Shown in pieces: positions 1 through 3,000 of a DNA stretch of 64,000 nucleotides. The stretch is taken from the NCBI RefSeq assembly GCF_057098645.1, contig NZ_CM169472.1. One strand, written 5' to 3'. Made by a program: the position numbers. Each line of letters begins with the position of its first letter. Positions within the stretch are counted from its first letter, which is position 1.

Positions 1-3000
1 CCTGAAGGATCTCATCCTGCATACGTTCAGCGAGGAAACCTTCGCGCCATTCACGCTGTTGCAGCATTAAGTTTAGCTGCTCGCCGGAGAAGGTGTCGCC
101 ATCACACAGGGAGGCGACCTCTTTACACTGGCGGAGGATCCACTGCGGGCTAAGCGGAAGTGTTTCTTGTTCACCGGTGTAGCGTACTGCTTCGCGGATA
201 AGTACCGGCCAGGCATCCGCTCCCGGTGCAGGTAAGTGATTATGTCTGGCGGTAAATGTCACCCAGCGACACCACTGGCTTACTGACTCCGCATCGACAA
301 TCTGCAGAGTATCTTCAAATTCGCTATAAATAGCCTGCTCTGAAAGCTCTGGCTCCATCTCCTGGAAATCAGCCAATGATTCGCGTTCGCCTACCAGAAT
401 GACTTTCAGCTTCAATGGCATCGAAGGCACAGAGACGGGGAGAGGGCGCGACTCATCAAACGCAACCCAGTCAAAACGCTCGCGGTTAACGATATTTTTC
501 AGCCGCATCCACAGCAGAGGTTGCGCCAGCAGTGTACGCAAAGAGATGATGAGAATACCGCCATTTGCCTGATGCACCAGACCAGGCTGCAGGGTAATGT
601 CGCCATTAAACTGGCGCAGGCAGCCAAAGAGTTGCTCCGCTTCTACCCAGTCGGCAGCGACAACTTGCGTTAAAGTCGCAAAATTATCATCTGCACTCAC
701 TGCGTTACGTAAGCGGATGGTGTGGCCGGAAACCTCATAGTGACCGCCCACCAGTTGGCCTGCATCGCTTTGCAGCGTACGCGCGGCATCGGCAATAAGA
801 TTCAGATACTCAGACTCTTCCGGAGCCTTCGCCAGCATAAAAGAGGAGGATGCTCGCGTATGCAGCAACTGCTCCAGCGCAAATTGCAGTCGCGGTTGAG
901 TATCACTGAATAAAGGATCGTTTTCGTCAATCAAATGTGGCTGAGCAAATATTTCCTGATAGCTATCGGTATCAGGAACCAGGTCACGCCATGCAAGTTT
1001 CGTAATGGTCAAAGTTGATGTTTTTTAGTCTGTTGTCAAAGCTGCGATTATACCGTAACCGGCACTACAGCACACGTAGAAAGCACCGACAATACTCCTG
1101 GCATGGGCGTTAAAGCTCACAGGATGGAGATTCTTTTCTTCACTGGCCTAAAAAGCTGATATTCTGTAAAGAGTTACACGGTAACATTGAGATCGCTATG
1201 AAATATCAACAACTTGAAAATCTTGAAAGCGGTTGGAAATGGAAGTATCTGGTGAAGAAGCATCGCGAAGGGGAGTTAATCACCCGTTACATAGAAGCCA
1301 GTGCCGCCCAGGAAGCCGTCGATGTGTTGCTCTCGCTGGAAAATGAACCCGTGCTGGTAAATGGCTGGATTGACAAGCATATGAATCCGGAACTGGTCAA
1401 TCGCATGAAGCAAACCATTCGGGCCAGACGGAAGCGCCATTTTAATGCGGAACACCAGCATACGCGCAAAAAATCGATCGATCTGGAATTTATTGTCTGG
1501 CAACGTCTGGCTGGTCTTGCGCAGCGTCGCGGTAAAACGCTTTCTGAAACGATTGTTCAGCTGATTGAAGATGCGGAAAACAAAGAGAAATACGCGAATA
1601 AAATGTCTTCTCTGAAGCAGGATCTGCAGGCATTGCTGGGTAAGGAATAACTGACGAAAGTCATTCAATTTACTAAAGGCAAAAAAAACCCCGCAGCAGC
1701 GGGGTTTTTCTACCAGACGAGAACTTAAGCCTGCGGCTGAGTTACAACGTCTTTGATACCTTTAACTTCGATCTCAACGCGACGATCCGGAGCCAGGCAG
1801 TCGATCAGTGCAGCACGCTGTTTCACGTTGTCACAGGTGTTGCCAGTAACCGGGTTGGATTCGCCCATACCACGTGCGGAGATCTTGTCTGCCGGGATAC
1901 CTTTGGAGATCAGGTAATCAACAACAGACTGAGCACGGCGCTCGGACAGACCCTGGTTGTAAGCGTCAGAACCGATGCGGTCGGTGTAACCCAGAACAAC
2001 TACGGAACCGTCTTTCGGATCCAGGTTGCTCAGCTGGCTGTACAGCTGATCCAGAGCAGCCTGACCTTCCGGTTTCAGGGTTGCTTTGTTGAAGTTGAAC
2101 AGAACGTCAGACTTCAGAGTGAAGTGCTTGGTCTGTACTTCCGGTGCCGGAGCTGGAGCCGGAGCAACTACCGGAGCTGCTTCGCCCTGACCGAAACGGT
2201 AGGAAACACCCAGGCTCAGCAGGCCGTTGTCCGGACGAGTGCCGATGGTGTGTGCGTCACCGATGTTGTTGGTCCACTGGTATTCCAGACGGGTAGCGAT
2301 TTCAGGAGTGATGGCCCATTCAACACCACCTGCGAATACCGGAGAAACGCCGGTATCGTGGTTTTTCTCAGATTCACCTGTCACATTGTTGTGAGCTTTG
2401 GTGTCTGCACGCCAAACCATACCACCCAGACGAGTGTACACGTCCAGGTCGTCAGTGATTGGGTAACCCAGTTTAGCGGTCAACTGAACGCCCTGAGCTT
2501 TGTATGCACCGTTTTCAACGCTGCCTTTGTACGGCATACGACCTAACCAGTCGTAACCCATTTCAAAGCCAACATACGGGTTAACCTGGTAACCACCAAA
2601 AGCACCAGCGCCCAGTTGGTTTTCATGGGTCGGGCCATTGTTGTCGATGAAACCAGTGTCATGGTACTGGGACCAGCCCAGTTTAGCACCAGTGTACCAG
2701 GTGTTATCTTTCGGAGCGGCCTGCGCTACGGTAGCGAAACCAGCCAGTGCCACTGCAATCGCGATAGCTGTCTTTTTCATTTTTTGCGCCTCGTTATCAT
2801 CCAAAATACGCCATGAATATCTCCAACGAGATAACACGGTTAAATCCTTCACCGGGGGATCTGCTCAATATTAACTCTACCGATATCTTCGGCTTATGCC
2901 GAGCACCCCTGGCGATGTAAAGTCTACAACGTAGTTGAAAACTTACAAGTGTGAACTCCGTCAGGCATATGAAAAAAAAGTCTTGTATAAGGTACGTTTA

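Follow-up and report, generated by a model that had tools for sequence, protein, structure and literature searches.

The ompA gene in a 64,000-nucleotide stretch of an Escherichia coli chromosome (NCBI RefSeq assembly GCF_057098645.1, contig NZ_CM169472.1; the whole stretch is hereafter called the window) raises the question of which OmpA surface this strain carries, and how that surface came to differ from the one of K-12. An earlier note, made from the sequence alone, had proposed an ompA allele with altered surface loops and an extra length of proline-alanine hinge. With high confidence, we consider the gene to be the ordinary chromosomal ompA of an O145:H28-like E. coli, carrying the known natural allele 'pattern V, alpha', in which a patch around loop 3 appears to have been swapped into a K-12-like backbone, altering the surface of the protein.

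Identity of the ompA allele

The product of the gene is OmpA. The open reading frame (ORF), found on the minus strand of the window, was intact and encoded 351 aa with every domain present. The protein matched the NCBIfam model NF008071 'porin OmpA' (PRK10808) with 681.3 bits (protein positions 1-351 against model positions 1-358), the curated cut-off of this equivalog being 277 bits. The gene order matP-ompA-sulA-sxy-yccS was the same as in K-12 (b0957 locus) and in O145:H28 annotations, and the 4.7-kb ompA region was collinear with K-12 at 98.6% identity. The window chromosome itself was O145:H28-like, a type of E. coli that makes Shiga toxin (STEC).

The encoded protein corresponded to RefSeq WP_000750414.1, annotated in O145:H28 genomes, and a search for residue differences from this entry found none. 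The exact protein was present on at least 1000 public contigs under the name 'MULTISPECIES: porin OmpA', while the nucleotide sequence of the gene was 100% identical in at least 27 complete genomes, mostly from O145:H28 STEC, in addition to pig, fish, veal, water and human isolates. The earlier note had raised exact identity to a common reference allele as the observation that would speak against it. Exact identity was indeed found, to these genomes and to the RefSeq entry, but the allele concerned is a minority one and not a common one.

All the residues that define the published (V, alpha) type were recovered: D25 in loop 1, SVE in loop 2, the pattern V core in loop 3 and H in loop 4, together with W129, which is exclusive to pattern V. 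The C-terminal domain was identical to K-12 at the protein level and possessed the alpha residues at positions 175, 203 and 251 (A175, N203 and G251), with T and A replacing N203 and G251 in other sampled alleles. As the C-terminal half equals the K-12 'alpha' type, the window allele is (V, alpha). Pattern V was described from 78 environmental isolates, of which it made up 6.4%; all strains with W129 belong to it, the co-occurrence of W129 and the pattern V loop 3 being perfect (rho = 1.00; Liao et al. 2017, Front Microbiol 8:708, PMC5413513). When the 10-residue pattern V core was searched for as a string in a library of papers, it was found in that study alone. The allele is already known, having been published in 2017, catalogued in RefSeq and phenotyped. 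What is added here to the published work is the description, at the nucleotide level, of a single mosaic patch of ~170 nt, and the frequency of the allele in 5,426 complete genomes.

A divergent mosaic tract around loop 3

The locus did not diverge evenly from K-12 along its length. The 4.7 kb around ompA contained 54 substitutions, 24 of which fell within the divergent tract listed in Table 1. Divergence reached 15% in this tract (24/159 nt), compared to 0.66% in the surrounding sequence (30/4,553 nt; Fisher p = 5e-22). Outside the tract, ompA was essentially of the K-12/O157 type, from which it departed at 1 site over the first 296 nt and at 3-4 sites over the last 586 nt. The window allele was also compared with 10 other E. 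coli alleles, chosen to spread over the identity range; among these 11 alleles, it had 25 private sites, 24 of them in the tract. At the codon level, codons 99-156 accounted for 13 synonymous and 4 non-synonymous changes relative to K-12, as well as 5 extra codons, whereas the remaining 293 codons showed 2 synonymous and 2 non-synonymous changes.

Loop 3 of K-12 reads TKSNVYGKNHD, while that of the window allele has 16 residues and differs by S108A, inserted HN, Y111T and inserted ESE, for a net gain of 5 aa; it possesses two extra Glu and loses Ser108 and Tyr111. The 21-residue loop peptide that the earlier note had cited as unlike K-12, within positions 2100-2500, was located at aa 127-147 (window ~2340-2402) and is 5 aa longer, net, than its MG1655 counterpart. 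On the strand leaving loop 3, the window allele encoded VEWAI, compared to VEYAI in 10/10 other sampled alleles. Position 93, on the strand entering the loop, is listed among the known transmembrane polymorphisms (PMC9560509). The two further changes, N25D and M161L, were outside the divergent tract and both were present in other alleles. Alignment with K-12 thereby bore out the claim of altered surface loops, at loops 1 and 3. Mature OmpA of the window had a net charge of -7.7 at pH 7, compared to -4.8 for K-12, a shift of about -3 that is consistent with the lower isoelectric point (pI) published for (V, alpha) (predicted pI 5.90 vs 6.41; Liao 2017, PMC5413513).

This pattern suggests that a patch of ~170 nt, comprising loop 3 and its two carrier strands, was replaced by much more divergent homologous sequence, most likely in a single intragenic recombination event from a donor that would probably be Escherichia-like. 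The patch would have brought in I93V and Y129W and, in place of SNVYG, the 10-residue core that lengthens loop 3 by 5 residues and makes it more acidic. N25D is a separate change in loop 1, which together with the patch lowers the mature net charge by ~3. The perfect co-occurrence of loop 3 and W129 reported by Liao et al. is explained by V93, loop 3 and W129 riding on one patch.

Frequency of the loop-3 families

Among the 5,426 complete E. coli genomes, 5,425 gave an ompA match and one did not. A 54-nt tag for the window-type loop 3 was present in 67 of them (1.2%), always in single copy and on the chromosome. By contrast, the short SNVYG/SNFDG family was found in 3,223 genomes, using the K-12 loop-3 segment as query, and the long [A/S]NVPGG family in ~2,129 genomes (~39%), using the long-loop segment. 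The three families together covered 5,419/5,425 ompA-bearing genomes, the window allele being the rare third family.

Two side observations concern the distribution of ompA sequences. O157:H7 genomes possessed K-12-type residues in loops 1 and 3 and O145:H28 genomes possessed pattern V, so that two major serotypes of enterohaemorrhagic E. coli (EHEC) have different OmpA surfaces. Separately, a small E. coli plasmid of 4,668 bp that came from piglet faeces (NZ_CP097216.1) contained at ~635-978 an ompA barrel fragment, annotated as 'outer membrane beta-barrel protein', that was ~91% identical to ompA gene positions 199-557.

Expected functional consequences of the altered surface

The altered surface would change the recognition of OmpA by OmpA-dependent phage adhesins, by colicins or other bacteriocins and by antibodies, and might also change surface and attachment properties. 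The role of OmpA loops as phage and colicin receptors and as immune targets, also mentioned in the earlier note, is documented (PMC9560509, PMC12032242). The most likely consequence for the window allele would be an altered profile towards phages, colicins and antibodies.

It is nevertheless quite possible, although we rather doubt it, that the allele is a selectively neutral lineage marker with no meaningful effect on phages, colicins or hosts. In hydrophobicity and biofilm formation, (V, alpha) fell together with (I, alpha) and (II, alpha), and like most alleles it showed no neutrophil-elastase killing (Liao 2022, PMC9560509); chromosomal history was concluded to explain most of the distribution of OmpA patterns (Nielsen 2020); and phages with a broad-host-range Gp38 infect all tested OmpA variants (PMC12032242). 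On the other hand, when expressed in the isogenic MG1655 ΔompA background, (V, alpha) gave significantly higher attachment to corn stover than (I, alpha) (Liao 2017, PMC5413513). T-even phages with a narrow-host-range Gp38 do tell natural variants apart, as the loop-2/loop-3 combinations found in strains of the E. coli reference collection (ECOR), from which eight variants were tested as cloned genes, decide whether infection occurs (PMC12032242). Moreover, mutations conferring resistance to phages and colicins concentrate in loops 2-3 of OmpA (PMC9560509), and the changes described here sit in this loop-3 region. The shift of -3 in net charge also argues against neutrality. Work by Morona and colleagues in 1984-85 is said to have placed classical K-12 receptor mutations at residues that include Ser108 and Val110, both inside the replaced segment.

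A more specific proposal, which we put forward tentatively and consider somewhat unlikely as a whole, is that the loop-3 patch is an imported receptor cassette from an unsequenced Escherichia-like lineage, kept at ~1% because its carriers evade a class of T-even phages dependent on OmpA, or of colicin U-type bacteriocins, to which strains with either of the two common loop-3 types succumb. If this were true, the patch would represent a rare third serotype within a receptor polymorphism under negative frequency dependence, with O145:H28 STEC among its carriers. OmpA loops are receptors of T-even-type phages and of some colicins, as well as vaccine candidates, and phage cocktails or OmpA reagents built on K-12 or on the common long-loop allele may miss O145:H28-type strains. 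The allele by itself matters little and has a narrow practical bearing, and the nucleotide patch adds a minor mechanistic detail to the co-occurrence figures already published.

Origin of the tract

From its divergence pattern alone, the tract would be an imported recombination patch. Its DNA was 82-85% identical to other E. coli alleles, compared to ~76% to Klebsiella. In the homologue comparison, Trp at the counterpart of position 129 (VEWA) was the norm in Klebsiella, Enterobacter and Yokenella, and OmpA of these genera resembles the window protein both in this residue and in having a long divergent loop 3. Their own loop-3 sequences (SKGNYASTGVSRSEHD, SSNSIAGDNHD) differ, however, from that of the window, and by this comparison these genera are not the direct donor. 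A search for homologues of the barrel domain, which returned mostly fragments, gave no cluster representative from outside E. coli with a window-type loop 3. The tract probably stems from an Escherichia-like lineage that has not been sampled, or from an old polymorphism.

Several points weigh against the reading of the tract as an import that alters a functional surface. Degenerate back-translated patterns of the encoded loop 3 (15 and 10 residues) gave 0 matches when searched in one genome for each of ~100,000 species, and plasmid records searched for a source of the tract yielded just ordinary chromosomal ompA in mis-filed records, at no more than 85% identity. The tract could instead reflect a long-standing balanced polymorphism of E. 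coli. The link of (V, alpha) to phages, colicins and immunity is drawn from other OmpA variants. Lastly, the overall confidence of the AlphaFold2 (AF2) model of the protein was low (predicted local distance difference test, pLDDT, of 59.6), and the loop assignment comes mainly from the alignment with the K-12 barrel and from the published topology.

An origin without any import has also been considered, in which the longer loop 3 was built up in place by point mutations and short insertions, with phages or antibodies exerting diversifying selection. Loop 3 is hypervariable in both length and sequence across Enterobacteriaceae, so local evolution is common there, and two species-representative genome scans returned no donor. 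In-place evolution is nonetheless decidedly unlikely in our view. Selection on the loop leaves the synonymous changes in the flanking strands unexplained, and as many as 13 synonymous changes were concentrated in 58 loop-region codons, compared to 2 in the other 293. The edges of the tract were sharp, its 24 private sites were accompanied by no intermediates in the sample of 11 alleles, and the loop DNA contained no internal repeat hinting at slippage. Synonymous changes packed so densely into the adjoining strands are what would be expected of an imported homologous patch, and not of local selection on the loop.

Domain architecture and expression signals

The window protein follows the standard OmpA build: after the signal peptide comes an outer-membrane beta-barrel of 8 strands, which bears four surface loops, then a Pro/Ala hinge and lastly a periplasmic domain that binds peptidoglycan (Table 1). 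OmpA chains in the PDB matched it with E values from 1e-108 to 1e-228; the barrel structures 1QJP/1BXW matched at E ~1e-108, with indels confined to loop 3. The AF2 model, which served for strand and loop order alone, contained 8 strands (strand pLDDT 70-83) and four low-confidence tips (residues 40-51, 82-93, 129-137 and 175-183). D46 (precursor numbering) mapped to the first tip and the loop-3 core to the third, flanked by strands 112-130 and 137-156. These placements agreed with the published topology, in which the two sites belong to loops 1 and 3 and positions 93, 129 and 161 are found in strands adjoining loops 3 and 4.

The extra hinge length (APAPAPAP) proposed by the earlier note did not hold, as the hinge was residue-for-residue the same as in K-12 and in 10/10 other alleles; its sole nucleotide change relative to K-12 was one synonymous Pro codon (CCA>CCG). 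A longer hinge is ruled out by this identity. It follows that a novel allele combining altered loops with a lengthened Pro-Ala hinge is highly improbable: loops 1 and 3 do differ from those of K-12, but the hinge is unchanged and the allele was already published and catalogued. An artefact of sequencing or assembly, or a pseudogene, is a practically negligible explanation, ruled out by the intact frame with its complete domains and by the recurrence of the same sequence in at least 27 complete genomes, assembled independently, and of the loop tag in 67.

The sequences governing expression were also conserved. The OmpA signal peptide is 21 aa long (PMC9560509), and its length and sequence were the same in the window as in K-12. 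Window positions 2645-2995 showed zero substitutions or gaps relative to K-12 in the nucleotide alignment. In K-12, the region upstream of the start codon functions as the ompA leader. Downstream, matP and ompA share a terminator whose hairpin (1689-1704, CCCCGC-AGCA-GCGGGG) has A8 and T5 on its flanks and folds, as minus-strand RNA, at -24.1 kcal/mol (z = -5.7); a consensus terminator scan did not report the hairpin at 1681-1709, although folding confirmed it. Because the signal peptide, 5' leader, hinge, C-terminal domain and terminator hairpin are unchanged, expression and anchoring should match those of K-12, with the exposed surface alone differing. On the basis of the identity of the signal peptide, leader and barrel to those of K-12, OmpA would be made and inserted in the outer membrane, with loops 1-4 exposed. 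Functional expression of this allele type in MG1655 ΔompA has been published (Liao 2017, PMC5413513; Liao 2022, PMC9560509).

Table 1. Features of the ompA locus and of the adjoining prophage, in window coordinates.
Feature	Position	Strand	Basis or remark
matP	1198-1650	+	Flanks ompA
Bidirectional intrinsic terminator common to matP (+) and ompA (-)	1681..1709	.	Read from sequence and RNA fold
ompA coding sequence, 351 codons and stop; allele 'pattern V, alpha' (RefSeq WP_000750414.1)	1725..2780	-	ORF and translation; NF008071; 100% nt identity with ompA as annotated in O145:H28 genomes
C-terminal periplasmic OmpA-like (peptidoglycan-binding) domain, aa 227-322	1815..2102	-	Pfam PF00691, E = 3.4e-24
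Pro/Ala hinge, 14 residues, unaltered	2136..2177	-	Same as K-12 and 10 other alleles
N-terminal 8-stranded beta-barrel domain, aa 23-200	2181..2714	-	Pfam PF01389, E = 2.7e-82
Codon CTG, L161 (M in K-12), common to several other alleles	2220..2222	-	K-12 alignment and allele comparison
Divergent mosaic tract, 174 nt, gene positions 297-470; 24 substitutions and 15-nt net insertion relative to K-12	2311..2484	-	Window/K-12 alignment
Codon TGG, W129 (Y in K-12), strand leaving loop 3	2316..2318	-	K-12 alignment
Loop-3 variable core, 10 residues, aa 129-138	2367..2396	-	Translation and K-12 alignment; same string as pattern V loop 3 (PMC5413513)
Codon GTG, V93 (I in K-12; I114V in precursor numbering), strand entering loop 3	2439..2441	-	K-12 alignment
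Loop-1 codon GAC, mature D25 (N in K-12; N46D in precursor numbering)	2643..2645	-	K-12 alignment; D25 variant in PMC5413513
Signal peptide codons, 21 aa, same as K-12	2718..2780	-	K-12 alignment
ompA 5' untranslated leader and promoter-proximal region, nt-identical to K-12	2781..2994	-	Window/K-12 alignment
sulA	3137-3646	-	Flanks ompA on the other side; followed by sxy and yccS
Intact integrase-size ORF (prophage)	14553-15572	-	
DicF small RNA (prophage)	18550-18601	-	
sok/hok module (prophage)	27854-28028		
STnc100 (prophage)	33080-33270		

Neighbouring prophage

A lambdoid prophage, unrelated to the ompA finding, adjoined yccA (13486-14145, minus strand) and occupied the window from ~14500 to its end at 64000. 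In a relative, the annotation includes terminase, portal, capsid and tail genes, a phage-borne sodC, gpJ and, near the 3' end, an 8-stranded barrel protein of the Lom/Ail family. In the closest annotated relative, RM12761, no stx gene was annotated between the Q antiterminator and the holin. Three phage-borne tRNAs were detected by ARAGORN at 32754-33003, namely Met(CAT), Arg(TCG) and Arg(TCT); the first is named tRNA-Ile in RM12761 by RefSeq (presumably the lysidine-modified CAT type), a discrepancy of naming alone.

The prophage lysis region also contained an IS3-family insertion sequence (IS) at 39670-40883, placed between a lysozyme-like ORF (38821-39354) and the ORF at 40946-41470, and possessing two overlapping ORFs and an ALIL frameshift pseudoknot (40486-40602, minus strand). 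The same kind of IS was found inside the prophage integrase in O145:H28 RM12761 (locus positions 14964-16177) and upstream of the terminase in Z1323HEC0422 (locus positions 1748-2961), indicating that the position of the IS varies among near-identical strains.

Comparison with known OmpA types

Relative to the published 'pattern V, alpha' allele (Liao 2017, PMC5413513; Liao 2022, PLoS One, PMC9560509), all defining residues of the window protein were the same, with no difference at the protein level. With the K-12 'pattern I, alpha' allele (b0957; 1BXW, 1QJP, 2GE4), the window gene shared the locus, signal peptide, barrel, hinge, C-terminal domain, leader and terminator, and nucleotide identity was at least 99.5% outside the divergent tract. 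It differed from K-12 OmpA by N25D, I93V, Y129W, M161L, 5 additional residues in loop 3 and a charge ~3 more negative. OmpA of 'pattern II/III', which corresponds to 'ompA2' in the work of Gophna 2004 and Power 2006 (cited through PMC5413513), also carries a lengthened loop 3 (+4 aa, ANVPGGASFKD) on the same barrel, with mosaic variation likewise concentrated in the loops, but differs from the window allele in its unrelated loop-3 sequence, P25 in loop 1, DNI in loop 2 and Tyr129, and in being common (~39% of complete genomes, compared to 1.2%).

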